A stretch of DNA of 64,000 nt from an uncultured cyanobacterium (GTDB taxonomy: Bacteria; Cyanobacteriota; Cyanobacteriia; PCC-9006; JAAUQQ01). The translations under genes were made by a program, and so were the position numbers. The stretch lies in the NCBI GenBank assembly GCA_963718615.1, contig OY970368.1:1152001-1216000 (forward strand), written 5' to 3'. The notes below the pieces were generated by a model that ran no database searches, was not told where the DNA came from, and saw only the letters and a list, made by a program, of their open reading frames with translations. Below are positions 10,813-53,117 of the stretch, piece after piece (the first letter of the stretch is position 1; each line of letters opens with the position of its first letter).

Positions 10813-13800
10813 TCAATTCTCCTTTCCTCTTGGCTCTATCCCACACAATGCCCGATCTTCATTGCTGACATCCGGGTTGGTGCGGAGGTAGTCGCTGGCC
10901 CAGGTGCAAGCCAGCTCCAGGAGTCGATCCACATCCCAAGCTGCGAGCTTGACGGTGCCGTCATAACCGCCGGAAACAATCGTCTGGCCATCGGGACTGA
11001 AATTCACGCTAGAGACCCAGCCTTGATGGCCTTTGAGGGTAGCGCGCTCGCTGCCGTCGGTGTTCCAGAGCTTGACGGTGCCGTCAGAACCGCCGGAAAC
11101 AATCGTCTGGCCATCGGGACTGAAATTCACGCTAGAGACCCAGCCTTGATTGCCTTTGAGGGTAGCGCGCTCGCTGCCGTCGGTGTTCCAGAGCTTGACG
11201 GTGCCGTCATAACCGCCGGAAACAATCGTCTGGCCATCGGGACTGAAATTCACGCTCAAGACCCTGCCTTGATGGCCTTTGAGGGTAGCGCGCTCGCTGC
11301 CGTCGGTGTTCCAGAGCTTGACGGTGCCGTCATAACCGCCGGAAACAATCGTCTGGCCATCGGGACTGAAATTCACGCTCAAGACCAAGCCTTGATGGCC
11401 TTTGAGGGTAGTGCGCTCGCTGCCGTCGGTGTTCCAGAGCTTGACGGTGCCGTCAGAACCGCCGGAAACAATCGTCTGGCCATCGGGACTGAAATTCACG
11501 CTAGAGACCCAGCCTTGATGGCCTTTGAGGGTAGTGCGCTCGCTGCCGTCGGTGTTCCAGAGCTTGACGGTGCCGTCCTCACCGCCGGAAACAATCGTCT
11601 GGCCATCGGGACTGAAATTCACGCTAGAGACCCAGCCTTGATTGCCTTTGAGGGTAGCGCGCTCGCTGCCGTCGGTGTTCCAGAGCTTGACGGTGCCGTC
11701 CTCACCGCCGGAAACAATCGTCTGGCCATCGGGACTGAAATTCACGCTATAGACCCTGCCTTGATGGCCTTTGAGGGTAGTGCGCTCGCTGCCGTCGGTG
11801 TTCCAGAGCTTGACGGTGCCGTCATAACCGCCGGAAACAATCGTCTGGCCATCGGGACTGAAATTCACGCTCCTGACCCAGCCTTGATTGCCTTTGAGGG
11901 TAGCGCGCTCGCTGCCGTCGGTGTTCCAGAGCTTGACGGTGCCGTCCTCACCGCCGGAAACAATCGTCTGGCCATCGGGACTGAAATTCACGCTATAGAC
12001 CCTGCCTTGATGGCCTTTGAGGGTAGCGCGCTCGCTGCCGTCGGTGTTCCAGAGCTTGACGGTGCCGTCAGAACCGCCGGAAACAATCGTCTGGCCATCG
12101 GGACTGAAATTCACGCTCAAGACCAAGCCTTGATTGCCTTTGAAAATATTGCGTTCCCGAATGCCATAAACCTGAGTCAGCGCTGCTTGAGTCTGCAACT
12201 TTGCTTCCAGAGTCTCCTGCTTCACGTTCTGCCCGATTCCTTTCGGTTTTGATTCAATCTGCTGAAAGGTTCTTCCTGCCCGAATTCCCTGCACCAATCC
12301 CAAGAGTGGCCGAGTCTGTGCCTCTGCCTCCGCCTTCCTTGCATCCACCTGTACCCCCACAATCCGCAACGTCCATTCCGCCTCTGCAAGCGTGTCTTCT
12401 GCAACTCTTGCACTTCGTGCCGCTTTCCGTTGTTCCTGCTTCGCTAGTCTCAGTTGCTGCTGCGCCTGAGTAATTTGAGCGTTGGTCTGTTGCACTTTGA
12501 CTTCTGCCGCTTGTGCTTTCCCCTGTGCCTGCTGCGCCTGAGCTGCGGCTGCTTGCACAGTTTGCTCTGCCGCCGCCACCTGCTGCTCTACCGCCGCTAC
12601 CTGCTGATTCGCAGCGCTTTCCTGCTCCTGCGCTACCCGCACCGCCTGATTAAGCCGCTCCCGCTCCGCTTCTACCTCTTTCACCTGTTGCTGAGCCATC
12701 TGGGCCTGCTGCTGGGCTGCCTTTGCCTGCTTCTGAGCCTCAGCAGACTGCTGTTTTGCCGTCAGCTCCTTACGCTCCATCGCCTGCAAGTTCTCGTTGA
12801 GCGTCTCTCTTTGCTGCGTCAGGGTTTCCTTCTCCTGTTGGGCCGCATTCGTTTCTTTCCGAGCTGTTTGCAAATCCGCCCGAGCAAACAACGCACTCGG
12901 TATGGCCACCCCCGCCAACGCCAACGCCGCCACAGCCCCAACCACACTGCGCAAATTCTGCCGATTCGCCTGCTTTGTTGCTACCGCGACTTTTTCTTCT
13001 GCCTGCTGCGCCGCCACCGCCAACTGCCGCTCCGCCTCTAACCGCGTCTCCTCCAACTGTTGCTCCGCCGCCGCCCGCGCCGCCGTCAAAATCTGATTCG
13101 CCTCTTGCTCCGCCGCAACTTCCCGCTGCGCCTTGTCCAACGCATCCCGCTGTTCCTGCTCCAACGACGCCTGAATAAACTGATTCTCCACCTGCCGCAA
13201 CCTCGGCTGCATAAATGCCCAAGACCGCGCCTCCGCCAACGGTTTCCCCCGCAATAGCCGCGCCACATCCTGATCCTGCTGCCAAGCCGCCATCTGCTCC
13301 GCAAACGGACACAACCGCCCCAGCTCCCGCTGCACCCACGCCCCATCAAACACCGCTCGATAAATGCGGTTATACCCCCGCACCAGCCCCGCCCGCTTCA
13401 CCACCAGCCCCGTCAACCGCAGCGCCATCTCCTCCGGGGCATCCGTCGCCGCCACCTCGCCCCGCTCCAAAATGCTCTGATAAATCCCCAACATCTCCCG
13501 CCGCCGCTGCTCCGGCTGACCCAAAATCCGATCTCGAATCGTCCGCAGATGCGTCTGCTCATCATTCGCCTCCCAATGACCGATGATCCGGGATTGCACA
13601 ATTGTAGACACATCAATACCGGTCGGAGTATCGACATCAACCTGAGTGTTGGCCACTAATCCGCAGACCCGTTGGGTGAGGAAGGGCTGGCCCCCTGTCC
13701 AAGCCAAAATTTCCCGCAACACCTCCGGCCCCCGGTTCCCTAATCCCACCGCCAGCGGCCCCACCTCACCCTCCCCAAAGCCCTCCAGCTCAATCGCTCG

Positions 13801-14409
13801 GCCAATATTAAACGGCGTCCGCGTCTTATCTTGAATCAGCTCCCCCGGCGTCGCCACCCCAAACAACGCAAACGTCAGCCGCCCATACTCCGGCCTGTCC
13901 ACCCGCCCGTTATAGCAAGCCCGAATAAACGCAAAAAAATCATCAATCGGAAACGGCAAACTCAACACACTATCGATCTCATCCACAAAGATCGCCAGAC
14001 TCCCCGGCAACTCCGCCAGCAGCCAATCCATCAACATCCCCAATCGATCCACCGGGGGAAACTCCTTGCGCTCCCGCCACCAGCTCCGCAACTGCAGCCG
14101 CTCCGTCAGCCCCAACCCCGCCACAATCTGCCGCGCCAGCCCCGCATACCACTGCTCCTCCGTCGGGCTTTGGCTACCAATCGAGGTAATATCAACGGCG
14201 ACACAGGCCACCCCCTCCCCCTGAAGCCGCCCCATCGTCCGCACCCGCAGACTCGACTTGCCCATCTGCCGCGAATTCAGCACATAACAAAACACCCCCG
14301 CCCTCAGCCCTGCATACAGCTCAGCATCCGCCCGCCGCTCCACATAGGTCGGGCTGTCCCCCGGCAGCGTCCCCCCGACCTGATAGAAACTAGCCCCTGA
14401 AGTCGCCAT
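10813..14409 (-). CDS. AAA_35-type NTPase - coiled coil/putative TM - 10x WD40 protein
   Basis: [15 protein letters not shown], Walker [10 protein letters not shown], Walker [18 protein letters not shown]; hydrophobic stretch [20 protein letters not shown]; A/Q/E-rich coil; WD40 repeats. Start chosen at MATSG. Confidence 0.92.
10945..12142. repeat. Tandem array of ten 123-bp coding repeats (WD40)
   Basis: Unit GAGCTTGACGGTGCCGTC recurs at 10945, 11068 and onward at 123-bp period; units differ at five codons. Confidence 0.97.
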
Positions 14410-14447
14410 AGGAATCACCCGTGCAAGCCAGACATCATACCCGCAAA

Positions 14448-15110
14448 TTAACCCGTTCGTAACCGATTTTCCAGCTCCTCTAGCGCCTGCAAACTCCCCA
14501 CAATCCAAGCGCGCTGAATCGCTGTCTCAACCCATTCAACCATCGGTAAATCTGGAAACTGCCGACTCACCGCTGAAGCCACATACTCCCCTGCTTCTAG
14601 CCAGTAAATCGTCAGACGCTCATTGGCATAAATCCAAACCTCAGGAACCTGAAGCGCCCTATAGGCTGCGATCGCCGTCAACGACGTCACATCCGTCTCA
14701 ATCGCCAAATCCGGCGGCGGATCCCCCGGCTCCAGACGGCGCTTCCCAATCATCCGCTCATAGTGTTGAATATAAAAACAAGCATCTGGCTCAATTCCCG
14801 CAATGCCCTGCTGCTTAAACGTCGTAGACCCTAGGGGTTGATATCGAATCCGTCGCGATCGCAGCACGGTTTTGACAATATCCGAAATCAAGTCCGTCGG
14901 CGCTGTACATTTCAAACAGCCATGGTCAGGACGTGGCACCGTAATCTCCAAAGTATCGTGACAGTAGGCGATTCGAGCCGAGCGGCGATCGCCCATCTCC
15001 GCCAAAATCGCTTCAAACTCCAGCCAATTCACATTTGGAATCGTCACTCGGCTACCGGGTTCGAGCCGGAGCTGACTAATGGGTTTGCTAATCGGTAAGA
15101 GCGCTGTCAT
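14448..15110 (-). CDS. Uma2 family endonuclease-fold protein
   Basis: [31 protein letters not shown]. Confidence 0.92.
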
Positions 15111-15170
15111 AGGACAAAATTGAATGGGACAAATCGTACAAAAATCAAACGTATTACTCCATCCCCTGCT

Positions 15171-16690
15171 TTATCTCGATTCTAAGCGATCGCCAAAATA
15201 CACCCGATACAACTCGCTCCGAAACGTCACCTCATTCCCCAACAAATCCACCAATCCCATGCTGTGCAACTGAAACGCCACTACCGACTCCAGCCGCACC
15301 GGCCCATCGGACTGCACCAACTGCCGCACCGCCGCCGCCAAGACCGGGTGCTGCTCCAGATTCCACAGATGCCGCCGCAAATGGTCGCCATAGAGCCCAG
15401 CTTCCGTCGGCGCTTCCCGCAGCAACTCCGTCAGCGTCTTGTCCCGGCGGGCAATGACATACAGCGCCAGCCGCACCAAATAGGGATGTCCCCCTACCAT
15501 ATCCATCAGCCGCTCAATAGGCGATGCATTCCAGTTCAAGCCATGGCGCTGGGCCAAATCCTGCACCTGCTCCGCCGTAAACTCCCGGAGTTCGATGGGC
15601 AATCCCACGTTAAAGGGCGACTGATTGATATTCATGGGGATATAGACTTCCGTGGAATGCACCACCACTAAACGGAAACGTTTCCAGATATCTCGCGTTG
15701 TCGCCGTATCATTCCAGGTCCGTAGCATCCCAAAAAAGTCCGCTGCAATGTTGGGATACTCAAACACCATATCCACCTCATCCAGACAGAGCGTTAGCGG
15801 CTGCTCCAGGCTGTCCAAAATATACTCTTCAAAATAGGCCGTGCAGTTGAGCTTGCTGCCGTAGATCTCATCATCCCAATAGTCATTCAGTTTGTTGGGC
15901 AACTTCAGCCGTCGCGCTACACTGGCCGCGAACCAGCGCAAAAACCGACGCAGGTCGCCAAACACCACCGAATCCGCAATCTGAAAACTCAGCGCCACCC
16001 CCAACGAGCCATTCTGCTCAGCATGGCGCAGCACCCGCGACATCAACGACGTTTTGCCCATTTGCCGGGGAGCCTTGATCCGAATCAGCGCCCCCGGTTG
16101 GGTAATGGCCTCATAACAGCGATCTTCAATCCCTGGCCGCTCCACATAAAACTGTGAAGCCAAATCCACCTGTCCCCCCGGCAGCTCCGGCTCCGCCACC
16201 GGCAGCGGCGGCATGTTCACCGACTCTTGCCCTATCAAGCTGGGGGCAATGGGTAGATCCACACTCTCTGGCACTGTCATGGGTTGCGTCGCTTGCAGTG
16301 TGCCTGTTTTGAGTAAGTCTAGAACTTCCGCGAGAATCCGGGGGGTGTCTGCGGGACTTTTCCACTCTCGCTGCTGAATGGAATGGAGATAGCCTCGCAG
16401 ATCGTAGTTGAGCGGGGCATCCAGTGGAAAATTCACCCGAATGGGCAGAATCCAGGGCCTACCGGTCTGTTCCTGGCGCTGTCTGGCCCGTTTCACTTCC
16501 TCGGTCACCATTTCGCTCAAAGCCGCCTGCTCCGACAGCAGCACGAGCATATAGTCACAGGTGTTCAGCTCCTGGTCAATCCGCTGCACCCAATCTTCGC
16601 CCAACCGCAAACTTGCCCCTGCCATAAAGGCGCTATAGCCTTCGGCCTCTAGCGCGGTCTGAAAGGTTTGTGCCAAGACCTGATCCGGGT
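15171..16690 (-). pseudogene. 3' part (TIR remainder + AAA_35 NTPase) of IS-interrupted gene
   Basis: TIR: GEDW..RI..EL..CD..LVLLS..SEMVTEEV; Walker A APRQMGKTS, Walker B LCLDEVD, QSPFNVG, GGHPYL; joins in frame with 19324-19819. Confidence 0.9.
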
Positions 16691-16795
16691 TATCAAGTGT
16701 CAAGACATTTGCCTGTCGCGACAATTAGAAGGCGGGGAGCCCACTGAATTGGCAAAAGGAAATGAGAAGCGGCAATCTCAGGTCAAGACGACAAT

Positions 16796-17644
16796 CTAAG
16801 ATCGCTTCTGGTGTGTCGATGTTTGGGAGTCAGATTCAGAGGATTTTGCCGGGAGTGCCTTCAAGTTCTCAGAGCGCTGGTGAGCGGAGCGTTTACGAAA
16901 ACTGTCCGCCTTGATTTCGAGAATGACCGCATGGTGAATGAGGCGGTCAACGGCGGCGACGGTCATCATGGAATCACCAAAGATGGAGTTCCACTCACTG
17001 AACGGCTGATTGGCAGTGACCATGATGCTTTTGCGCTCATAGCGATAGGCAATGAGTTCAAAGAGAACGGAGGTTTCTGCCTCGGATTTTTGGACATAGC
17101 CGAGGTCATCAATGATCACGAGGTCAAAGCGGTCGAGCTTTTTCAGGGCAGGCTGAAGCTGGAGATGAAGCTTTTCTTTTTGGAGATACTGCACCAGGGT
17201 GGTGGCACAGAAGAATTTGACGCGCTTGCCCGCTTCCAGGGCGGCACGAGCGATGCCAGCGGCCAGATGGGTTTTGCCGACCCCAGAAGGTCCGAAGAAG
17301 AGACAGTTTTGGGCGTCATCAATCCACTGGGGTTCAGTGGCGAGTTTTTGAATCGGGAGAGGGTTAACCAGGGGCAGGTGTGTCCAATCGAAATTGGAAA
17401 CCGTTTTGGCGTTGGGCAGTTGAGCTTCGGTGATGGCTCTTTGGAGGCGCAAAGCCTTGCGGCGGTCTGTTTCGAGTTGGCACAGGGCCAAGAGAAATTG
17501 CGCGTAGGACCAGGTCTCTCGCATGGCTTGCTGCTCCAAGGTCTCCCAGTGGTTGAGCATATGGGATAAGCGCAGGTGCTTGAGCTGAGCGCTGAGGCTT
17601 TGGTAAGGGCTCAGCTCCGGTTGAGACGAGCTCTGGTTCTGCAT
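16796..17644 (-). CDS. istB: IS21 helper ATPase IstB
   Basis: GPSGVGKTHLA, DLVIIDDLGY, AAVDRLIHH; start uncertain. Confidence 0.95.
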   Translation of the reverse strand: MQNQSSSQPELSPYQSLSAQLKHLRLSHMLNHWETLEQQAMRETWSYAQFLLALCQLETDRRKALRLQRAITEAQLPNAKTVSNFDWTHLPLVNPLPIQKLATEPQWIDDAQNCLFFGPSGVGKTHLAAGIARAALEAGKRVKFFCATTLVQYLQKEKLHLQLQPALKKLDRFDLVIIDDLGYVQKSEAETSVLFELIAYRYERKSIMVTANQPFSEWNSIFGDSMMTVAAVDRLIHHAVILEIKADSFRKRSAHQRSENLKALPAKSSESDSQTSTHQKRS

Positions 17645-19154
17645 CTGGGATGACGCTGCTGTGGGTGAACAGAAGGGCATCGTAGTCGTTGAGGTCATGT
17701 TGTTGGACATTCACGGTGGGGAATTCGAGTTTGGTGAGCAACTGAAAATGGAGTCTGAGCCTTGAGAGGGTGAGGGTTTTGGCCTCAATCTCTGGGAAGA
17801 GGTAGTCAGCGACCGCCGCTTCCTTGTTTTGGGTCGCCGCAATATAGAGGGCTTCGACCATGAGCACGGCGGCAGAATCAAGCTCAAAGCCAGCCTGGAG
17901 CTGTTTCCAGAGTTGGTGATAGCGCTCATTGGGCAGGAGGTCCTCTCGCCAGGTGCTGTGGAGGAAGGCCAAGGGCTTTTTGCGCAACCCTTCGATGACA
18001 TGGTGATAGTCCACCGAGCGGGCGCGCCGCTTGTCCTTGTCAGTAGAACGAATCCGTTTCAACCTGAACACTTCATGGCCTTCGAGGTAGCCCATCAGGC
18101 GGTTGTGGTGCAGATGCACTTCCAGGGACCGGCCAATTAAGCGAGACGGCACGCTGTAGAGCATGCAGCGGATATCAATCGTGCTGTTGCTGCTCACCTT
18201 GGCGGTGAGGAGTTCGTAGTCCGCAGCCCGGTATTTGGGCAACGCCTGGAGATGCGCTTTCTCATGCTCATACTTATCCTGATGCTGGGCATTGAGCTTG
18301 GCCACACAGTCATTGAGCAGGTCTTGATAGTCGCTGACGCTAGCGAAGTCGGTGCTGCCGCGCAGGTACATCGCTTGGACAATGCGGTTCTTCAGATGAC
18401 CGTGGGGGCCTTCAATAGAACCGTTCTCGTGGGCGATTCCCCGGTTGTTTCGCGTCGGTTGCAACCGATAGTGCTCACACAGGTCGTCATACAAGCGCGT
18501 CAGCGGTTTGGTCTTCTTCCCACCCAGATTTCGATAGGCCGCACTCAGGCTATCGGTGCGATGCTGCTTTGGAGCCCCGCCGCAGGCAAACAGGGCATTC
18601 TGCAATCCTTCGGATAGGGCGACAAAGCTTTCACCCCCCTCGATTAACTCCGCGTAGGACCAGCCGCTGTAGCCCAAGCGGTAGTGATAAATCAAGTGCT
18701 CATAGGGCTTTCCATTTATCGTCACCACCGTCCCTTTGAGTTCGGTGAAGTCGGAAAATCCTTGCACCCCCGGCTCGTGACGCAGCTCAAACATCACCTC
18801 GGGAGCTGGACCATACAGTGCTTTCCAGGTTCTCACTCGCCGCTGAAGCGTCCTGAGCACTTGCGGATATTGACCCGGATATTTGTCCTGCAAATGCTCA
18901 AATAACGTCGTCGGTTTCAGTCTTGGCTCAGCTCGCAGCATCGCCTCTAGTTCGGCTTCCCAAAGACCGTTGAGTGGATCTGGCCGGGTCCGCACCCCGG
19001 TGCCCTCTCCACTCCCCTGCTGCCACTCGTTGGCATCCATTCGTTGCGCGGTTCGCACCGAAAATTCCGCCACCGCTGCCGCATCTTGCTGCGACAGGCC
19101 ATGCTCCTTTGCATTCATGTACACTCGCTGTTGATACATTATTACTCTCGACAC
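17364..19154 (-). CDS. istA: IS21 transposase IstA (DDE)
   Basis: RTLQRRVR, HEPG...SDFT, HRTDSLSAA, AHENGSIE, YSVPSRLIG. Confidence 0.95.
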   Translation of the reverse strand: MSRVIMYQQRVYMNAKEHGLSQQDAAAVAEFSVRTAQRMDANEWQQGSGEGTGVRTRPDPLNGLWEAELEAMLRAEPRLKPTTLFEHLQDKYPGQYPQVLRTLQRRVRTWKALYGPAPEVMFELRHEPGVQGFSDFTELKGTVVTINGKPYEHLIYHYRLGYSGWSYAELIEGGESFVALSEGLQNALFACGGAPKQHRTDSLSAAYRNLGGKKTKPLTRLYDDLCEHYRLQPTRNNRGIAHENGSIEGPHGHLKNRIVQAMYLRGSTDFASVSDYQDLLNDCVAKLNAQHQDKYEHEKAHLQALPKYRAADYELLTAKVSSNSTIDIRCMLYSVPSRLIGRSLEVHLHHNRLMGYLEGHEVFRLKRIRSTDKDKRRARSVDYHHVIEGLRKKPLAFLHSTWREDLLPNERYHQLWKQLQAGFELDSAAVLMVEALYIAATQNKEAAVADYLFPEIEAKTLTLSRLRLHFQLLTKLEFPTVNVQQHDLNDYDALLFTHSSVIPDAEPELVSTGAEPLPKPQRSAQAPALIPYAQPLGDLGAASHARDLVLRAISLGPVPTRNRPPQGFAPPKSHHRSSTAQRQNGFQFRLDTPAPG

Positions 19155-19323
19155 TCGTTAGAGTCCTTTCTTTCCAGGGGGACCCTATGAGTGTCTTTTT
19201 TTGTCGATCGCCACGCCAGTGAGCTGTCAAAGTCTCACGTCTGTCTCACGATCCAAGCCACGCTTTCGCGACAACTCCCGCCAGGAAATGTCGAGCAGCC
19301 GCCAATGCTATTGTCGTCTAACA

Positions 19324-19819
19324 CCGGGTCCTGGCTGCGATAGCTAATAAAGCAATGGGGAGGCTTTTCGGCTGCTAAGTCGGCTGCTAAGTCGGCTGCG
19401 GATAAAGAGTCCTGGCTCGCCATCGATTTCGACTTTTCAGGACGACGCTCTTCCCAGAGTTTGTCAAATCGACTCAGATTCTCGGCTGGCTCACGACTCC
19501 AGAGCATCAATTTAAACTTCCATTCTTCTGAGCCCCGGGTGGTGGCCCGTTCGTCTTCTAGGATCCCCAGATGGTCTGGCAAGTAATGGCTGAGCGCATA
19601 CCGGACCTGGTCAGCAGTCAGCGGGTCTCCTTCTCCTTTACGGGTGAGCTGTTCAAAAAAACGACGTTTGGCCTCAACCCTCAGCTCCGGTGACTCGGTG
19701 TCTAACCAAAGAACATGGACCTCTTTTGCGGGTTCTCCGGTTTCGACAAACTCTAAGATTGCAGCCAAAAGCTGCCGAACCCGTAACCGGTTCGTAGGAC
19801 CGTAGGAATACTTAGCCAT
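19324..19819 (-). pseudogene. 5' part (N-terminal domain + first TIR strand FISY) of IS-interrupted gene
   Basis: Ends ..HCFISYRSQDP at the TSD; N-terminal domain (YGP..R...LL.A, ILED.R..RGSEEW.F.L.LW) resembles domains I recall from other cyanobacterial NTPases. Confidence 0.85.
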
Positions 19820-19903
19820 ACCGTTTTAGTAAAAACACCCTCAACCATCCTGTCTTTTCATCCTACTGAATCCCTTGCTTGAGTTGCGGGGACTTCATCA
19901 AAA

Positions 19904-20074
19904 CAAAAAGTTTGGGGTATCTCTAAACTGGCTCTTCCCCCAAACTGGCCTCTAGTCCTTCTACTGTAACCGGTTCAGCCTGCTTGAGTCCTGCATTTGC
20001 TTTGGACCACTCCCCCAAATCGAGCCTGTGGTTGTCGATTCATCGCCCCTCTGGGGACTGGAGCAACCACCATG
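19904..20074 (+). promoter_or_regulatory. Conserved leader, copy 1 (CCCCCAAA boxes)
   Basis: Aligns without gaps to 21082-21252 (offset 1178), about 102/171 identities by hand count. Confidence 0.8.
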
Positions 20075-20953
20075 GTCCACACGACTGCTCGCCACCGCAA
20101 GGCCACTGACAAAAAGCCGATTTCCTGGCTCGGCCTGCTATTGCTCGTGAGTCCCTTTGTCAGCTTCGCTAGCCTGGGTCTCTCCACTGGGTTCTTACTT
20201 CACACCCTGCATCGCCTAGACAATCCAACTCCCATCGTTGTAGCTGAGGTCGATGATGTACCCAATCAACCTGAGGAGAAGCCTTTAGCTTCTCTTCCAG
20301 TTTGGGCAAACCAGCTCGACAACAGCTTGGCTAGCCGCATCGTCAAGTACATGATCAGCCAGGGCTACCAGGTCGATACGAAACCGAATGAGTACAACAT
20401 CATCTACATCGAAGGGATGAACCTTGATGGCAGCTTGAATGATGATCGCCCCAACGTCTTTAACGATCTTCGTCTAGTAATCGAATTCGTTGAAGAGCAG
20501 AAAGGGCAGCCCAAAATCGTTGGCCTGTGGGAGGCAACCACTGAGCCGGGATGGCACTACACATTTAACCCTCTCAATGCCAAAGGGGCTGCTCGCATCC
20601 AGTTTGGTCAGTACAAGGCTTGGCAGATGGGACTGCATGGCAAAGATCTGCATGTGGCGTTGGAGCAAGCGGCACCGATTCCGGTTTATCGCGATTTGAA
20701 TCAGGACTTTATGCGCACGGGGGATGAGCTGGATATTGGCGAGTTTGACATCAATCAGCACTGGGGCTATGACCATCCCGTTGACGATGTTTACACCGCC
20801 AGCGCGGGCTGTTTGGTGGGGCGAACCTGGGAGGGTCATCAGGCGTTTATGGACTTGCTGAAACAAGATCGTCGCTACCAAGCCGATCAACAGTACGTTT
20901 TCAGCACCACCATTATCTCTGGAGATGACTTGGTCAAGCAGTTTGCGCAATAG
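20072..20953 (+). CDS. Membrane-anchored putative L,D-transpeptidase-like peptidoglycan enzyme
   Basis: N-terminal TM; NIIYIEG, ATTEPG, GQY..W..GLH, INQH...SAGC (His/Cys motif of YkuD-like fold). Confidence 0.65.
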   Translation: MVHTTARHRKATDKKPISWLGLLLLVSPFVSFASLGLSTGFLLHTLHRLDNPTPIVVAEVDDVPNQPEEKPLASLPVWANQLDNSLASRIVKYMISQGYQVDTKPNEYNIIYIEGMNLDGSLNDDRPNVFNDLRLVIEFVEEQKGQPKIVGLWEATTEPGWHYTFNPLNAKGAARIQFGQYKAWQMGLHGKDLHVALEQAAPIPVYRDLNQDFMRTGDELDIGEFDINQHWGYDHPVDDVYTASAGCLVGRTWEGHQAFMDLLKQDRRYQADQQYVFSTTIISGDDLVKQFAQ

Positions 20954-20981
20954 CACCCCGGATCCAAGCCCCAAACCCGAT

Positions 20982-21006
20982 GAGAGAGCCCTGCTCTCTC
21001 TTTTTT
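20982..21006 (+). terminator. Intrinsic terminator
   Basis: GAGAGAGC-CCT-GCTCTCTC followed by T6. Confidence 0.85.
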
Positions 21007-21081
21007 GTTGACTTCTTGTTTGTGGATTTCTTGCTGGAGTTTGGTTTGAGTTTTGCACAATTCCCGAGCCTTCTCAACTCC

Positions 21082-21252
21082 CAAAAAGTTTGGAGATCCC
21101 CCCAACTTCGTTCTCCCCCAAACCTAAATAAAAGTCTTATCTCATAAGCTTTTTAGCGACTTTACCCCCCTTGCTTGCTTTGTCCCACTCCCCCAAACGG
21201 ACTCTGGAATCGTCAACCCAGTCCCCCGATGGGGAACGGAATCAACAGCATG
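21082..21252 (+). promoter_or_regulatory. Conserved leader, copy 2
   Basis: Colinear with 19904-20074, including ATG position. Confidence 0.8.
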
Positions 21253-22032
21253 TTCAACATACTCAATCGCTCACTCAAGTGCCGTACCTCTCTTTCCTGG
21301 GTCGATCGCTTACTCCTCTTGAGCCCTGGGATCACATTGATGAATACGGTGGCGACCTTTGCCGTTTTTGGCTACGGGATGCATTTACATCATGCAATCT
21401 CCGCCCCTACCTCGGATCATTCTGTCTCTGCAAACTCTCCAGTCTACCTCCCTGGGCTGGAATCCAATATTTTGCACAAGCCTTTTCCCCCGACGGCAGC
21501 ATCTCACCCAACCGTTCAGTTACCCAAGACCGACTTTTATCGATTAGTGACCCTGAGCGTTTTAGAAGCTCCCACCTCCATGGGCCGATTGGACGTAATT
21601 CAGTCCGTATTTAATCGCCTCAATGCGCCTTCAGTGGGTGCAGGGCAATTTGGATCTAGCATTACTGAGATTGTTTTCGAGGAAAAGCAATACGAGCCCT
21701 ATTTTCATTTTCAGGCCAGCGATATTGTGGATGAAGCGAGTGCGATCGAGGTGCTGCGATCGCGCGGTTATTCCAAGTCAGATGCCCTTTTTGCGCTCAA
21801 CGAAGTCATTGCCAATTTGCAACATCCCAAGCTGATGGCCGATGCTCGAAAACATGTGGGCGGTAGAACCCAATTCAAAGGTGTAAGCCAGTATCCCAGC
21901 CGTTGGCCCAACGAAGACCCCCTACGTGAAACAGGAGAAAACTTCTTTCACATTGACCCCAAGAGCCAAACCTATGAGCAGCTATCCCAATTGATGCTGC
22001 AAGGACCATTAGTGGTTCAGATGCTTGATTAA
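21250..22032 (+). CDS. Membrane-anchored SleB/Hydrolase_2-like cell wall hydrolase
   Basis: LEA catalytic Glu, G..DV.QSVFNR, SI.EIV...QYEP; start placed by leader alignment. Confidence 0.7.
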   Translation: MFNILNRSLKCRTSLSWVDRLLLLSPGITLMNTVATFAVFGYGMHLHHAISAPTSDHSVSANSPVYLPGLESNILHKPFPPTAASHPTVQLPKTDFYRLVTLSVLEAPTSMGRLDVIQSVFNRLNAPSVGAGQFGSSITEIVFEEKQYEPYFHFQASDIVDEASAIEVLRSRGYSKSDALFALNEVIANLQHPKLMADARKHVGGRTQFKGVSQYPSRWPNEDPLRETGENFFHIDPKSQTYEQLSQLMLQGPLVVQMLD

Positions 22033-22246
22033 ATCAGGAAAACTTGAGATATGCATTGCTTGCACCGCTCAGCGGGCAAGCGATGCTCAAGTCAACCTCA
22101 TTCGACCCAATAGCCGAGCCTCCGTCAAAGCAAAGTTTAAGGGCGATCGCACCCCCATCTTTCTTCCCTTCAACACAATTGCAGTCTTTCTGATCTTGGG
22201 CGTTAAACCGGAACGATTTCTGCTCCCATGGCGATCGACCTAAATC

Positions 22247-22720
22247 CTAACCCCTTGACCAGCGAGCCAAGGCTTTTTCAGGGTTGCTAATTTCTGCCAC
22301 CGAACAATAAAAATAATCTTGCCAATTCGCTTCCGGCAACCCCGCAAAGACCATTAAATTTAAGGGATATTCTTCGCTATCGCTGCAGCGTCGAAAATCA
22401 TCTCGAAAAAGAAAGATAGGTTTTTGGAGGGCGATCGCCATCCCCAACTCCACCATCACCCCTTCATCCGGCGGCGTACCATTCACCACCGCAAATAAAC
22501 CATCCGCCGCTCGCACATCGGCCACATCGGCCTGAGCCACACCATAGGCCCAGCCCGGTTGAGAAAAATCTACCTGATTATTGCGAGCAAAGGGCTCCCA
22601 AACCTCCAGGCCCAGTGCTTCTAGCTGTGCACAAAGAGGCGGTAATAGCAACGCTCGTTGCTGGGTCGAAAATCCGTAGGGATTAGCTAAATATAGGGTT
22701 TTAGTCATGGTTTTAGTCAT
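22247..22720 (-). CDS. Nucleoside 2-deoxyribosyltransferase family protein
   Basis: YLANPYGFS, PDEGVMVELGMAIAL; start 22720 or 22708. Confidence 0.9.
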   Translation of the reverse strand: MTKTMTKTLYLANPYGFSTQQRALLLPPLCAQLEALGLEVWEPFARNNQVDFSQPGWAYGVAQADVADVRAADGLFAVVNGTPPDEGVMVELGMAIALQKPIFLFRDDFRRCSDSEEYPLNLMVFAGLPEANWQDYFYCSVAEISNPEKALARWSRG

Positions 22721-24612: not shown

Positions 24613-25917
24613 GTGGACGAGCAGATTGCATCGGCAAGGGACTACGAAATTTTGGGGGTATCACCGGAAACCCCGCGCAAGGACATCCAATCGGCGTACC
24701 TAGCGCTGATCGAAACCTGGGATCCTCAGGCGGTCAATCGCGAGACCAATCCACGACTCTTTGAGCAGGTTCACGAACGCTATCACCAGATTAATCAAGC
24801 CTACCAGCGGATTGCGGAGCAGTTTTCTCCGGCTTCTGGAGGTGCTCCAGCCGCTGCCGCCCCCGCAGAGACGCGACTACAGGGCGAGACGGCGATCGCC
24901 CCCGATAAGACCCCTACCCCCGCCTCGGAAGCTCACCCAGCCTTTGCCCCGACGCGCATGGAGTCCCATGAACCGGACCATGAACCGGACCATGAACCGG
25001 GCCATGAACTGGGCCATGAACTGGGCCATGATACCGACCTCGAACCCGTCAGCCCGTCGGCAGCATTCATCAGCCTCTTGCGCTGGGACAAACCAGCGGG
25101 TCGGCTGATTTTAATGCTCCCGGCCCTTTGGGCGGCGTTTTTGGCGGCGGGTTCCCAGTGGCCGAGCTGGCAAATTTTGCTGATGATTGTGTTGGGCAGT
25201 ATTGCCACCAGTGCGGTCGGCTGTGTGGTTAATGATCTTTGGGATCAGGATATTGATCCCCAGGTGGAACGTACCCGCGATCGCCCCCTAGCCGCAGGCA
25301 CCCTCTCGAAGGAAGCGGCGATCGCCGTGGCGGTCATTGCTGGCATCGTGGCGGTCGTCATTGCCCTATTGCTCAATCCCCTTAGCAAGCTCCTCTGCGT
25401 TGCCGCTGCGGTGGTGATTTTGCTCTATCCCGGTGCGAAGCGGGTCTTTCCGGTACCGCAATTGGTGTTGGCAATCGCCTGGGGCTTCGCGGTCTTGATT
25501 GGCTGGGCAGCGGTCGCTGGAGCGCTCACCTGGGCCACGGGGTTGCTGTGGTTGGCGACGGTGCTTTGGACCCTGGGGTTTGATACGGTCTATGCCATGG
25601 CCGATCGCGATGATGATCGGCGGTTGGGGGTAAATTCGAGCGCGCTGTTTTTTGGCGATCGCTCGGCCCAGGCGGTAGGTCTGTTTTTTGTCGGCACAGC
25701 GCTCATGCTGCTCTGGGTAGGGATTGAGCTCAATCTTGGGATTTGGTACTGGATTAGTATGGTTTTGGTTTCCCTCGGCTGGCTCTCCCAGCATCGTCGT
25801 TTAGAAAAACACCGCAGCCGCCCGACCTCTTTGCTCTATGCCACGATTTTCAATCAAAATGTTTGGCTTGGGGTGGTCCTGTTAGTCGGTATCATTTTTG
25901 GACGGGGTACGGTTTAG
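24613..25917 (+). CDS. 4-hydroxybenzoate solanesyltransferase (UbiA family) with N-terminal J-like domain
   Basis: RWDKPAG, NDLWD..ID..VERT..RPL, DTVYAMAD..DD; N-terminus YEILGV..I..AY..INQAY. Confidence 0.9.
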   Translation: MDEQIASARDYEILGVSPETPRKDIQSAYLALIETWDPQAVNRETNPRLFEQVHERYHQINQAYQRIAEQFSPASGGAPAAAAPAETRLQGETAIAPDKTPTPASEAHPAFAPTRMESHEPDHEPDHEPGHELGHELGHDTDLEPVSPSAAFISLLRWDKPAGRLILMLPALWAAFLAAGSQWPSWQILLMIVLGSIATSAVGCVVNDLWDQDIDPQVERTRDRPLAAGTLSKEAAIAVAVIAGIVAVVIALLLNPLSKLLCVAAAVVILLYPGAKRVFPVPQLVLAIAWGFAVLIGWAAVAGALTWATGLLWLATVLWTLGFDTVYAMADRDDDRRLGVNSSALFFGDRSAQAVGLFFVGTALMLLWVGIELNLGIWYWISMVLVSLGWLSQHRRLEKHRSRPTSLLYATIFNQNVWLGVVLLVGIIFGRGTV

Positions 25918-26051
25918 GGATGTACGGTTTAGGGATGTACGGTTTAGGGGCAGTGGCTCCAACCCTGTCAATCGACGGTCAAGGGGCAAGCCAAAAATCG
26001 AGCCGAATATCAAGCAACATCAAGCCAAATATCAAGTAAACAAGGGATTGG

Positions 26052-26981
26052 GTGTCTATTCATAGCGAGACTGATAGCAAAAAAAACCTGTTCAATCGCC
26101 TTCCCCCACCGCTGAAACCGGGCGATCGCCTCATGGTGGTTGCCCCCAGCGGTACCCTGCGAGAGCGGGAAAGCTTTATGCGCGGCGTGGCGCTCTGGCG
26201 GCAGCGGGGCTATCAGGTGGAGCTCTGCGCAGGCTACGACGGACGCTGGGGCTACCTAGCCGGCACCGACCAGCAGCGACGGCAGCAGCTCAAACAAGCC
26301 TGGAGTAATCCCGATTGCAAGGGTATTCTGTGCGTGCGCGGGGGCTATGGGGGGGCGCGGCTGCTGGAAGACTGGGACTGGCCCATGGTTCCGGCCAAGT
26401 GGCTGATTGGTTTTTCCGATGTGACGGCTTTGCTCTGGAGTTTGAGCCAACAGGGCATTGCGGGGCTCCATGGCCCCTTGTTAACGACGCTGGCGGAGGA
26501 GCCCGCTTGGTCGATTCAGCGGCTGTTTCACTGGGTCGAAGGCCATTGGAATTTGCCGCCGCTGCAAGGGGACAGTTGGGTGGGCGGGGTGGTTGAAGGC
26601 AAGCTGATGCCTGCCAATCTGACGGTGGCGACGCATCTGCTCCATACGGGGGTGCAGCCCTCGCTGAATCATGTGATTTTGGCCCTAGAAGATGTCACGG
26701 AAGCCCCCTATCGGATCGATCGCATGTTGACCCAATGGCGAATGTCGGGAGCTCTGAGCCAAGTTCGGGGCATTGCCCTGGGGCGCTTTAGCCAGTGCGA
26801 GCCTTCGGCGGGGGTTCCGAGCTTGAGTGTGGAGGAAGTTTTGCGCGATCGCCTCTGTGATTTGGGCATTCCCATTGTGGCGAATTTGCCCTTTGGTCAC
26901 GATGGGGTGAATGCGGCGTTGCCGGTGGGGATTTCGGCGCGGCTGGATGGCAACTTGGGAACGTTGACCACGCTGCCCTAG
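26052..26981 (+). CDS. LD-carboxypeptidase (S66)
   Basis: RGGYG, GFSDVT, LEDV.E..YRIDR, PFGH. Confidence 0.93.
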   Translation: MSIHSETDSKKNLFNRLPPPLKPGDRLMVVAPSGTLRERESFMRGVALWRQRGYQVELCAGYDGRWGYLAGTDQQRRQQLKQAWSNPDCKGILCVRGGYGGARLLEDWDWPMVPAKWLIGFSDVTALLWSLSQQGIAGLHGPLLTTLAEEPAWSIQRLFHWVEGHWNLPPLQGDSWVGGVVEGKLMPANLTVATHLLHTGVQPSLNHVILALEDVTEAPYRIDRMLTQWRMSGALSQVRGIALGRFSQCEPSAGVPSLSVEEVLRDRLCDLGIPIVANLPFGHDGVNAALPVGISARLDGNLGTLTTLP

Positions 26982-36052: not shown

Positions 36053-37063
36053 ATGTATGAATTGCTCACGCAGGTTCTGCTGTGGATATTGATTGGCTAT
36101 ATTGCCTGGTTTCTCCTCAAGCAGTTTATTGATCCAAAGGTTTATACCTTTCTGGGATTTGCACTGCTGATTACGCTGTTGGTCATGGCGTTTTTTGACC
36201 CGGACCAAAATATTGTTTCGGAAGCCTGGAGCATCCTTTCGCTGCCGTTCAGGCCCCTGGGACTGGCGCTGATTTTTTTACTCAGTGTCTTTCCCTTTAA
36301 GGACATGGGTAAGTTTAAGTTTGTCCAGGATCGAATCTTCTGGGCGATCATGATCCTGCTAGTGAGCAGTGCTCCGGCCACGGCCTATTGGCTCCACAGC
36401 CAAGCGGAGCAGGATGTCACCACGCTGATCCGAAATTCAACGATTAATACGCCGGGGGTTATTGTCCTGCTCGGGCAAAACACAACCCATCCCCTGATTC
36501 CCCCCCGCACCCAGATCGAGCTGACGGAGCAGGGCGATCGCATTCGTTACACCGCTGAGCTCTACGCTAATCAGCCCGGTTCTACAGTGCTCGTGGCGAC
36601 GGACAGTCGCAATGATCTCTCGGGCGATCGCAATCTCCGACAGGAGGGCAATGATGTGCGGACGCTGTTGAGTGGCCTGGGGGTTCCAGCGACGAATATT
36701 CGCATTGTCGATCGCAGTCGGACGATTCGGGAGAGCGCCAAGCGGGTCCGCGATGTCTTGCAGGAAAGTTTTTCGGGAACCCGAGAGCTGCTGTTAGTCT
36801 CCTCGGCATTGGATATTCAGCGGGCAACGTTAACGTTTACAGAAGCACTGAAAAGCTTCAATGATGGGACAGGAGTCCGGATCGTTCCCCGCGCCACCGA
36901 TTTTGTCACCGTGCAAGACAGCGGCAATCTGCGGCGTCGCTTTAATTTTCCCAAGGATGTGGTTCCCAGCGAGGAAGCACTCTATCTCACCACCCAGGCT
37001 ATTCAGGAGCAGTTTCTTTCGGTTTACTATTTCTTGCGCGGTTGGTTGTCCTCAGTTTCCTAG
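36053..37063 (+). CDS. YdcF/DUF218-like membrane protein
   Basis: N-terminal TMs; VLLG, DRI, LGVP, SRT..E.A, LVSSA...RA..F. Confidence 0.75.
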   Translation: MYELLTQVLLWILIGYIAWFLLKQFIDPKVYTFLGFALLITLLVMAFFDPDQNIVSEAWSILSLPFRPLGLALIFLLSVFPFKDMGKFKFVQDRIFWAIMILLVSSAPATAYWLHSQAEQDVTTLIRNSTINTPGVIVLLGQNTTHPLIPPRTQIELTEQGDRIRYTAELYANQPGSTVLVATDSRNDLSGDRNLRQEGNDVRTLLSGLGVPATNIRIVDRSRTIRESAKRVRDVLQESFSGTRELLLVSSALDIQRATLTFTEALKSFNDGTGVRIVPRATDFVTVQDSGNLRRRFNFPKDVVPSEEALYLTTQAIQEQFLSVYYFLRGWLSSVS

Positions 37064-37141
37064 TCCTCAGTTTCCTAGTCCTCGGTTTCCTAGTCCTCGG
37101 TTTCCTAGTCTGGCCTTTTGGTCTGGCGTTTTGATAGGTCT

Positions 37142-52295: not shown

Positions 52296-53117
52296 ATGGA
52301 CAAAAATATGGGGCTTTGCAGGATTTGTGGAGAAAATCTACAGCCATTGTTCAAACAACTGGTTCTGAATCAGTACTGGGTGAGTTACGCGCGATGCGAT
52401 CGCTGTGAAGCCCTCCAAACTGAAGACCCCTATTGGCTCAATGAAGCCTATGAAAAACAAGGAATTTCGGCTTTGGATACGGGGATTGTGCAGCGTAATT
52501 TGCGCATGGCAGCGCAAACCGCTCGATTGATTGATCAATGGCTACCCCAGGCTGAACGGTTTCTGGATTTTGGGGGAGGAACAGGGCTGTTTGTTCGATT
52601 AATGCGCGATCGCGGCTTTGCGTTTTATCGCTGCGATCGCTATACCGAAAATTTATTTGCTCATGGCTTTGACCTCTCGGATTTACCAGAAACAGCCCAA
52701 TTTGATTTGATTACGTCGTTTGAGGTTTTAGAGCATTTAGTCAATCCGCTAGAAACCCTTGGTAGCTTATTGCAAAAGGGCAACACCATCTTATTTTCGA
52801 CCGATCTACAGCCTGCGGTTGAGCAGCTCTCAACTTGGCCCTATTTGTTTCCGCTTTCGGGTCAGCATATTACGTTTTATACACCCAAAACACTGGAGTT
52901 TATGGCAGAACAATTGCATTGCAAAGTCTGTACCAATGGTCGAGATTTGCATGTTTTAACGAGACAGAATTTTTCGCAGCGGCGGTTGCGATCGCTCCTC
53001 ACCAAACCCCTGTGGCAACGGGGACTCAATTGGCTAGGGCATCGCCTTCGCACCAGACCGTCGTTGGTGGATCAAGACCTCCGGGCGGTGGTCAAGGGGC
53101 TGGAAAGAGGGGCATAA
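52296..53117 (+). CDS. Class I SAM-dependent methyltransferase
   Basis: CxxC x2, LDFGGG.G, FEVLEH, GQHI.FY. Confidence 0.9.
   Translation: MDKNMGLCRICGENLQPLFKQLVLNQYWVSYARCDRCEALQTEDPYWLNEAYEKQGISALDTGIVQRNLRMAAQTARLIDQWLPQAERFLDFGGGTGLFVRLMRDRGFAFYRCDRYTENLFAHGFDLSDLPETAQFDLITSFEVLEHLVNPLETLGSLLQKGNTILFSTDLQPAVEQLSTWPYLFPLSGQHITFYTPKTLEFMAEQLHCKVCTNGRDLHVLTRQNFSQRRLRSLLTKPLWQRGLNWLGHRLRTRPSLVDQDLRAVVKGLERGA

Follow-up and report, generated by a model that had tools for sequence, protein, structure and literature searches.

The 64,000-nucleotide (nt) stretch of DNA analysed here, from an uncultured cyanobacterium (positions 1,152,001 to 1,216,000 of contig OY970368.1, assembly GCA_963718615.1; hereafter the window), carries two adjacent genes on its forward strand, P0001 (gene 1) and P0002 (gene 2), each preceded by a non-coding leader of 168 nt. 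The two leaders are diverged, gap-free copies of one another, and the relationship continues into the N-terminal signal anchors of the encoded proteins. This duplicated 5' module is real and non-random, and is probably functional. The features of the locus, all on the forward strand and numbered from the first letter of the window, are as follows.

19904..20071, leader 1, 168 non-coding nt 5' of the ATG of P0001
19904..19915 (copy 2 at 21082-21093), box A, CAAAAAGTTTGG, 12/12 identical, holding a degenerate inverted C-box
19935..19945 (copy 2, CTCCCCCAAAC, at 21113-21123), C-box B, TTCCCCCAAAC, of a direct-repeat family with four copies
19997..20020 (copy 2 at 21175-21198), block C'-C, TTGCTTTG-NN-CCACTCCCCCAAA, with the second C-box at 20010-20020
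20046..20057 (copy 2 at 21224-21235), box D, CCCC-N3-GGGGA, a small palindrome or hairpin, 10/12 identical
20060..20063, Shine-Dalgarno-like GGAG, 8 nt 5' of the ATG, as read from the sequence
20072..20953, gene 1, P0001, 293 amino acids (aa): signal anchor, linker and muralytic domain (residues ~85-293)
20982..21006, intrinsic-terminator-like hairpin and T run, 3' of gene 1
21082..21249, leader 2, 168 non-coding nt 5' of the ATG of P0002
21250..22032, gene 2, P0002, 260 aa: signal anchor (predicted helix 17-46), linker and SleB-like domain (residues ~88-256)

The repeat had been described in an initial annotation, from a hand count, as a gap-free duplication of 171 nt with about 60% identity, and this description was borne out. 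Between 19904-20074 and 21082-21252, that is, with both ATG codons included, 102 of 171 positions are identical (59.6%) at a constant offset of 1178 and with no gaps; BLASTN returned an ungapped alignment of 178 nt (19904-20081 against 21082-21259, 60.1%, E 6e-11), and MAFFT inserted no gaps when aligning the two leaders. When leader 1 was slid along the whole window, the runner-up position reached 70 of 171 (mean 43.2, standard deviation 5.8), and the match to leader 2 lies some ten standard deviations over this background. No third copy of the leader was found in the window by blastn, tblastn or nhmmer, an nhmmer profile built from both leaders matching just these two places, and a distant search of a plasmid collection with the DNA at 19850-20250 (leader plus anchor) gave no match.

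Identity between the leaders is concentrated in five blocks, which together are identical at 53 of 55 positions, compared with 46 of 111 for the spacers together. The four spacers have equal lengths in both copies, as the initial annotation had stated, with 8/20, 19/51, 12/26 and 7/14 identical positions (37-50%). Over 100000 shuffles of the match vector, the number of bases within identity runs of at least 8 (43; p=0.00026), the total number of runs (31, fewer than in the shuffles; p=0.0005) and the sum of squared run lengths (650 vs 392; p=0.002) all indicated clustering, these statistics being slightly inflated because the left edge of the 171-nt stretch had been set at a 12-nt block. Uniformly distributed substitutions, proposed in the initial annotation as the mark of a neutrally decaying duplication, are thus not what the alignment contains. 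Furthermore, the leader is more conserved than the adjoining anchor coding DNA (60% vs 47% identity; 77/165 nt when codon-aligned, 15/55 aa), and its 171 nt contain no insertions or deletions (indels) despite 65 of 111 spacer positions differing, while the alignment of the anchor proteins needs gaps. Indels arise in unconstrained bacterial DNA at roughly one for every 10-20 substitutions, and on such ratios several would be expected had the leaders diverged neutrally. Conservation of the leader is most simply explained by purifying selection, since it has changed less than its coding neighbour, retains invariant blocks of 8-13 nt and has suffered no indels.

All of the blocks named in the initial annotation are present: box A (12/12), block B (TCCCCCAAAC, 10/10), block C' (TTGCTTTG, 8/8) and block C (CCACTCCCCCAAA, 13/13), which as C'-C form the longest conserved stretch, box D (10/12) and the ATG. 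Box C repeats the 10-11-mer of box B, inclusive of an invariant CAAA tail, and the resulting 11-mer, YTCCCCCAAAY (the C-box), occurs at 19935, 20010, 21113 and 21188, i.e. in direct orientation and 75 nt apart within each leader. The further proposal that the half-site occurs in both orientations also holds, with inverted arms at 19909-19917 and 19938-19946 that are 9 nt long and 100% complementary. Exact TCCCCCAAA is found five times in the window (1.1 expected); four of these lie in the two leaders and the fifth, at 52569 on the minus strand, lies within an open reading frame (ORF). No C-box site stands ahead of any other gene in the window. Leader 2 has GGAA (21238-21241) at the Shine-Dalgarno-like position, again 8 nt 5' of the ATG. 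One near-match to box A, at 25855 (CAAAATGTTTGG, one mismatch), was rejected as no C-boxes follow it; it falls in the region upstream of an LD-carboxypeptidase (Peptidase_S66) gene at 26052-26981 (+).

The initial annotation treated the repeat as a leader that ends at the ATG, and in this respect it needs to be extended, as the N-terminal signal anchors of the two proteins are also related (13/49 residues identical, 27% over 49 aa; pairwise E 0.004). Each N-terminus combines a short, positively charged stretch (five K/R in P0001, four in P0002, against one D/E each) with a single hydrophobic segment, whose Kyte-Doolittle peak (1.95 and 1.67, respectively; residues 17-35 in P0001) no later peak in either protein approaches. 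Three P0002-like proteins of other cyanobacteria (P0122, P0123 and P0124; 45-48% identical to P0002) have the same anchor, characterised by W-L-x3-L-x-L-S-P-F-I, and the P0001 anchor shares 39-41% identity with the P0122 and P0123 anchors and just 23% with the P0002 anchor. When a profile built from all five anchors was searched against 5.8 billion clusters, it matched five proteins, namely the five themselves, although limitation of this search to the 8000 candidates sharing most words makes it weak evidence of absence. Four of these five are of SleB-like type, and P0001 is the only protein of its catalytic type to carry the anchor among them. On these alignments the repeated unit is a 5' gene module composed of leader and signal anchor. 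As a speculative idea, the anchor may be of the signal-anchor-release type. Within the Rfam, protein-cluster and literature searches made, both the C-box motif and the anchor appear undescribed; in the full-text literature the 9-mers CCCCCAAAC and GTTTGGGGG occurred, among the matches listed, in primers or unrelated sequences.

Beyond its anchor, P0001 (residues ~85-293) is 50-64% identical to cyanobacterial peptidoglycan-binding domain-containing proteins. Of its 1353 homologues, the 120 best listed include, by table count, about 83 with PF01471 (PG_binding_1) and one that carries Phage_lysozyme; in the homologue sequences examined the peptidoglycan-binding domain is N-terminal, where P0001 has the anchor instead. 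Comparison of the P0001 domain with PHROGs identified phrog_3000 (E 1.4e-32) and the endolysin phrog_33083 (E 2.6e-12). The C-terminal domain matched no Pfam family at E<=0.01 and, whether as a single sequence or as a profile, no PDB chain at E<=1. Its best Foldseek matches are L,D-transpeptidases and are weak (8qzg, probability 0.57, template-modelling (TM) score 0.34-0.37; 4lpq, probability 0.15). The family has 60 invariant columns, including H230 and C247, the latter within the sequence SAGCLVGR, which may resemble a transpeptidase active-site motif, and from the model the domain possibly has an L,D-transpeptidase fold.

For P0002 the catalytic domain (residues ~88-256) was modelled with a predicted local distance difference test (pLDDT) score >90, and SleB catalytic domains (4fet, 4f55) occupy Foldseek ranks 1-3 (probability 0.97-0.99, target TM score (TMt) 0.54-0.59, E 0.06-0.11). 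Its family profile identified the same structures in the PDB (4f55, E 3.7e-05; 4fet, E 4.9e-05), and PF07486 (Hydrolase_2) scored 17.3 bits (E 0.0078), under the gathering cut-off of 27, as against 25.8 and 21.5 bits for the relatives P0127 and P0130. E106, a candidate catalytic glutamate, is invariant in 19 sequences, and an 'endolysin' PHROG was matched at E 5e-05. From fold and profile together, P0002 is predicted to be a SleB-like enzyme of the lytic transglycosylase type. Relatives of this domain (P0125-P0135 and others) lie deep inside proteins of ~1000-5700 aa, a Peptidase_M23 domain following in both of the long relatives scanned (P0125, P0130), and the plasmid collection yielded distant domain matches only, to genes annotated 'DD-metalloendopeptidase family' on three conjugative plasmids from Acaryochloris. 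This distribution suggests that, in long proteins and on plasmids, the SleB-like domain may serve as a wall-piercing module of transfer or injection machinery. Taken together, both products of the locus are predicted to be membrane-anchored, peptidoglycan-active enzymes with unrelated catalytic folds. The description of the pair as 'two unrelated enzymes' consequently stands for the folds and falls short in that both domains are of cell-wall (muralytic) types.

Where the initial annotation proposed a terminator, between gene 1 and leader 2, a terminator-like hairpin (20982-21000) was found 29 nt past the gene 1 stop codon; five of its eight stem pairs are G-C, the loop is 3 nt long and TTTTTTGTTG comes directly after it. 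Because this terminator-like hairpin parts gene 1 from leader 2, it is plausible that each gene has its own promoter. A short tandem repeat (20999-21033) is also present between the gene 1 terminator and leader 2. Searching 19700-22300 for sigma-70 consensus promoters found none (1.9 expected). Extracytoplasmic function (ECF)-type promoters have the consensus AAC, 16-17 nt, CGT; this type was dropped, as the conserved GTC follows the box C AAAC/AAAT at a distance of just 12-13 nt. The SigJ J-Box, a cyanobacterial extended -10 promoter given as GGGaAtacT in PMC6495340, was compared by eye and likewise set aside, as it matched at five of nine positions at most and fitted neither candidate site in both leaders. 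At the GGGG sites of box A (GGGGTATCT and GGAGATCCC for copies 1 and 2), copy 1 ends in T and copy 2 is without both the GGG and the final T; at box D (GGGGACTGG and GGGGAACGG) the final T of the -10 element is absent from both copies. No matching motif was found in passages on SigG, ECF and Nostoc promoters in PMC6495340 and PMC2758279.

Our favoured interpretation, which we hold with moderate confidence, is that the duplicated 5' module, i.e. regulatory leader and signal anchor, is under selection to co-regulate two peptidoglycan-remodelling enzymes through a regulator that acts at the C-boxes; to judge from the sequence, both genes are probably switched on together by this shared control element. 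The leader, duplicated along with the anchor-coding segment, would comprise the promoter region and 5' untranslated region (UTR) of each gene. The module heads two adjacent genes with differing catalytic domains, parted by the terminator-like hairpin, and preservation of the leader by purifying selection would keep both enzymes under the same control. YTCCCCCAAAY would be the recognition site for one sequence-specific DNA-binding regulator, whether a transcription factor or an alternative sigma factor, working at a promoter that is otherwise non-canonical; since no canonical sigma-70 promoter was found, an activator-dependent or alternative-sigma-dependent promoter would fit. Each leader would offer two direct C-boxes 75 bp apart (about seven helical turns) and, 27 bp upstream of the first of them, a degenerate copy in inverted orientation, and the conserved spacer lengths would hold these sites in register. 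The initial annotation suggested a phased multi-operator promoter; a box repeated within each leader and constant spacing across diverged spacers, both seen here, are features of such a promoter. The anchor, in turn, would tether P0001 and P0002 to the cytoplasmic membrane on its outer face.

A different account, somewhat unlikely in our estimation, has the leader working as RNA, in the form of a transcribed 5' UTR element. Box A (GUUUGG) would pair with box B (CCAAAC), and box C (CC..UCCCC) with box D (GGGGA..GG), which immediately precedes the Shine-Dalgarno-like GGAG, while a local CCCC-N3-GGGG hairpin would compete for the same G tract; the chosen pairing would set ribosome access or mRNA stability, perhaps through an RNA-binding protein or small RNA at the C-boxes. 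RNAalifold, run on the two copies, yields a consensus made up of precisely helices A:B and C:D (20 pairs, 17 of which are unchanged between copies and three altered on both sides, the GGGGA of box D pairing with the UCCCC of box C), GGAGA/UCUCC pairing accommodates the G-to-A change in box A of copy 2, a conserved Shine-Dalgarno-like element with 8-nt spacing adjoins box D, and fixed spacer lengths suit an RNA fold too. However, nearly all of the pairs fall within invariant blocks, and two sequences allow no real test of covariation. Fold energies of the sense strand are ordinary relative to shuffles (whole-leader z values of -0.83 and -1.24, and from -0.5 to -1.6 for their parts), the minimum free energy structures differ between copies and the antisense strand folds at least as well, so that RNA stability is neither strand-specific nor above background, which argues for a DNA-level reading. 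(The antisense fold of the proximal half of leader 2, 21173-21249 (-), reaches -32.7 kcal/mol, z -2.65, 1 of 200 shuffles, and the same part of leader 1 has z -0.04; this strong fold probably reflects the base composition of a G-rich complement.) In Rfam 15 the sole match in the window at the gathering score is a tRNA, and at E<=10 three chance-level matches in the window include none spanning a leader in the sense direction. Block C' is unpaired in the RNA model yet invariant, which again favours recognition as DNA. The same holds for the C-box CAAA tails: the only part of box C that enters the modelled pairing is its C-tract, so recognition of a specific sequence accounts better for the invariant tails.

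The leaders might also be the decaying remnant of a duplication or promoter capture, with a generic promoter only and with blocks that are chance survivors or mutational cold spots. There are just two copies, no other gene in the window is preceded by a C-box site, and spacers that are still 37-50% identical mean that some of the signal can be put down to shared ancestry by itself; nevertheless we regard this as distinctly improbable, given the clustering of identities (p=0.0003 for runs of at least 8, p=0.0005 for run number), the higher identity of the non-coding leader than of the adjacent coding DNA and the lack of indels among so many spacer differences. A protein-coding explanation, in which translation starts at a conserved TTG (19997, 21175) 25 codons upstream and in frame, such that C', C and D encode ML..TPPN...P.G.G, fares worst, and we give it hardly any credence. 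Both ORFs are indeed open from a TTG at exactly -75, and the conceptual peptides are alike at 10 of 25 residues. Against this, mismatches over the last 75 nt are distributed 9/9/7 with no third-position excess, the deposited P0122, P0123 and P0124 proteins begin 18-25 residues before the conserved anchor Trp, like the ATG starts here (17-19) and unlike a form lengthened by 25 residues, GGAG or GGAA lies 8 nt 5' of each ATG, and boxes A and B are outside the frame, behind stop codons. Over the leader as a whole, mismatches by codon position (27/23/19) show no codon periodicity and stops occur in every frame upstream of -75; on this pattern the leader is not coding.

Several observations weigh against co-regulation from C-box operators. 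The two copies provide no cross-species evidence of constraint on any block; no third C-box or leader site in the window gives a sign of a wider regulon; and no -10 or -35 elements, transcription start site or candidate regulator gene were identified here. A 75-bp direct-repeat spacing is unusual for simple operators, box A of copy 2 (GTTTGGAG) is imperfect as an inverted box, and all conserved blocks other than C' and the CAAA tails can be drawn as paired RNA. A pattern scan of genome contigs (TCCCCCAAAN{60,70}CTCCCCCAAA) proved too permissive and is uninformative as to a regulon: it returned at least 120 chance loci in unrelated bacteria, the source genome was not among the matched loci, and, apart from the pattern itself, none of those listed resembled the leaders or the proteins when compared by blastn, tblastn or nhmmer (best nhmmer E 0.11). 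With two copies, a DNA operator and an RNA element cannot be separated.

A more far-reaching proposal, which we consider unlikely, is that the leader represents an undescribed cis-element for cell-wall remodelling in a small cyanobacterial lineage, either a C-box operator array or a new structured 5' UTR, portable together with the lineage-specific anchor and grafted onto a second muralytic domain. In the structured variant boxes A and D, both G-rich, would select between boxes B and C, both C-rich, and by grafting the second muralytic domain would gain the same control and the same location. As to origin, it is likely either that the duplicated 5' part of a P0002-type gene replaced the peptidoglycan-binding domain of a P0001-type gene, or that a tandem duplication was followed by a domain swap. 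In the anchor-profile search the anchor was joined to a SleB-like domain in three other organisms, and to a P0001-type domain only here.

The neighbouring genes, with coordinates and strand, are listed below.

10813-16724 (within), reverse strand, left of the pair: WD40 protein of 1231 aa
10813-16724 (within), reverse strand, left of the pair: Uma2 nuclease-like ORF
15171-16724, reverse strand: TIR-AAA_35 protein
16796-17710 and 17364-19154, reverse strand: IS21-type pair, istB and istA-like, respectively, the latter with a Mu-transposase C-terminal domain
19235-19819, reverse strand: EAD4-domain ORF of 194 aa, EAD4 only, adjoining the IS21-type element
right of the pair: nucleoside 2-deoxyribosyltransferase, Ppx/GppA and DnaJ-UbiA protein genes
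26052-26981, forward strand: LD-carboxypeptidase (Peptidase_S66), a third peptidoglycan enzyme nearby, 4 kb downstream of the pair

An EAD domain is usually the leading part of a larger STAND nucleoside triphosphatase, and the EAD4 gene may have been truncated by the IS21-type insertion. The boxes were considered as ends of the IS21-type element and rejected as such, since the istA-like ORF is >650 nt away and the EAD4 gene intervenes. A prophage lysis cassette was similarly discarded despite the 'endolysin' PHROG matches, as the neighbours are an insertion sequence (IS) element, conflict-system and housekeeping genes; no prophage context was found among the annotated neighbours of the pair. 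The reverse-strand genes at 10813-16724 (WD40, Uma2-like and TIR-AAA_35) form a conflict-system-like cluster, in which the WD40 repeats at 10945-12143 are 95% alike in DNA (period 123, 9.7 copies). Short tandem repeats of period 9-15 and 2-6 copies occur at 25907-25949, 37048-37110, 24966-25036, the stretch between the pair noted above and about 35 other places, several of them intergenic (e.g. GTACGGTTTAGGGAT x2.9 at 25907).

If the boxes are functional, the locus would constitute a compact natural experiment in which the same control and the same anchor are placed on two different peptidoglycan-cutting enzymes, and would point to coordinated expression and placement of cyanobacterial cell-wall remodelling; to our knowledge, little is known of autolysin regulation in cyanobacteria. 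The locus also illustrates how an existing control circuit may gain a new enzyme, by duplication of a 5' module (promoter, UTR and targeting segment) and its fusion to another catalytic domain. Its practical value is modest, amounting to a candidate regulatory motif and a lineage-restricted anchor found in five proteins within the limits of the search.

In kind the arrangement is already known, as paralogous or chimeric genes that share a control region and a targeting segment. Surface-protein families such as the Mycoplasma vlp genes and the Borrelia lipoproteins with upstream homology boxes combine a conserved 5' cassette of promoter, 5' UTR and signal peptide with divergent mature domains, and here too the conserved unit is an upstream region plus an N-terminal targeting segment, with differing sequence downstream; in contrast to those families, this one has two members, joins unrelated enzyme folds rather than variable antigens, and has no sign of phase variation or recombination switching. 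In the WalR/WalK system of Firmicutes one regulator serves several peptidoglycan hydrolase genes through repeated promoter boxes. The present pair is similar in that two cell-wall hydrolase-type genes, each apparently its own transcription unit, share a short repeated box, and differs in that the boxes belong to a whole homologous 171-nt leader derived from duplication rather than to independently placed sites, with two targets seen; we know of no motif that resembles YTCCCCCAAAY and its 75-bp spacing. Riboswitch leaders of the ydaO (cyclic di-AMP) class are found upstream of cell-wall hydrolase genes, and the leaders described here are likewise long, conserved and ahead of cell-wall enzyme genes; unlike that class, they match no Rfam family at the gathering score or at E<=10 and have ordinary fold energies. 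Of the enzymes themselves, P0001 shares its C-terminal domain with proteins of PG_binding_1 plus phrog_3000 type, and has a signal anchor where those have an N-terminal PF01471 domain. P0002 resembles SleB, chains of which are its top three fold matches and its profile matches, and differs in having a domain of ~170 aa rather than the ~125 aa of the SleB catalytic domain, with a Pfam score below cut-off, and in being a membrane-anchored protein of a cyanobacterium, not of a spore former, with relatives that lie beside Peptidase_M23 in proteins of 1000-5700 aa.

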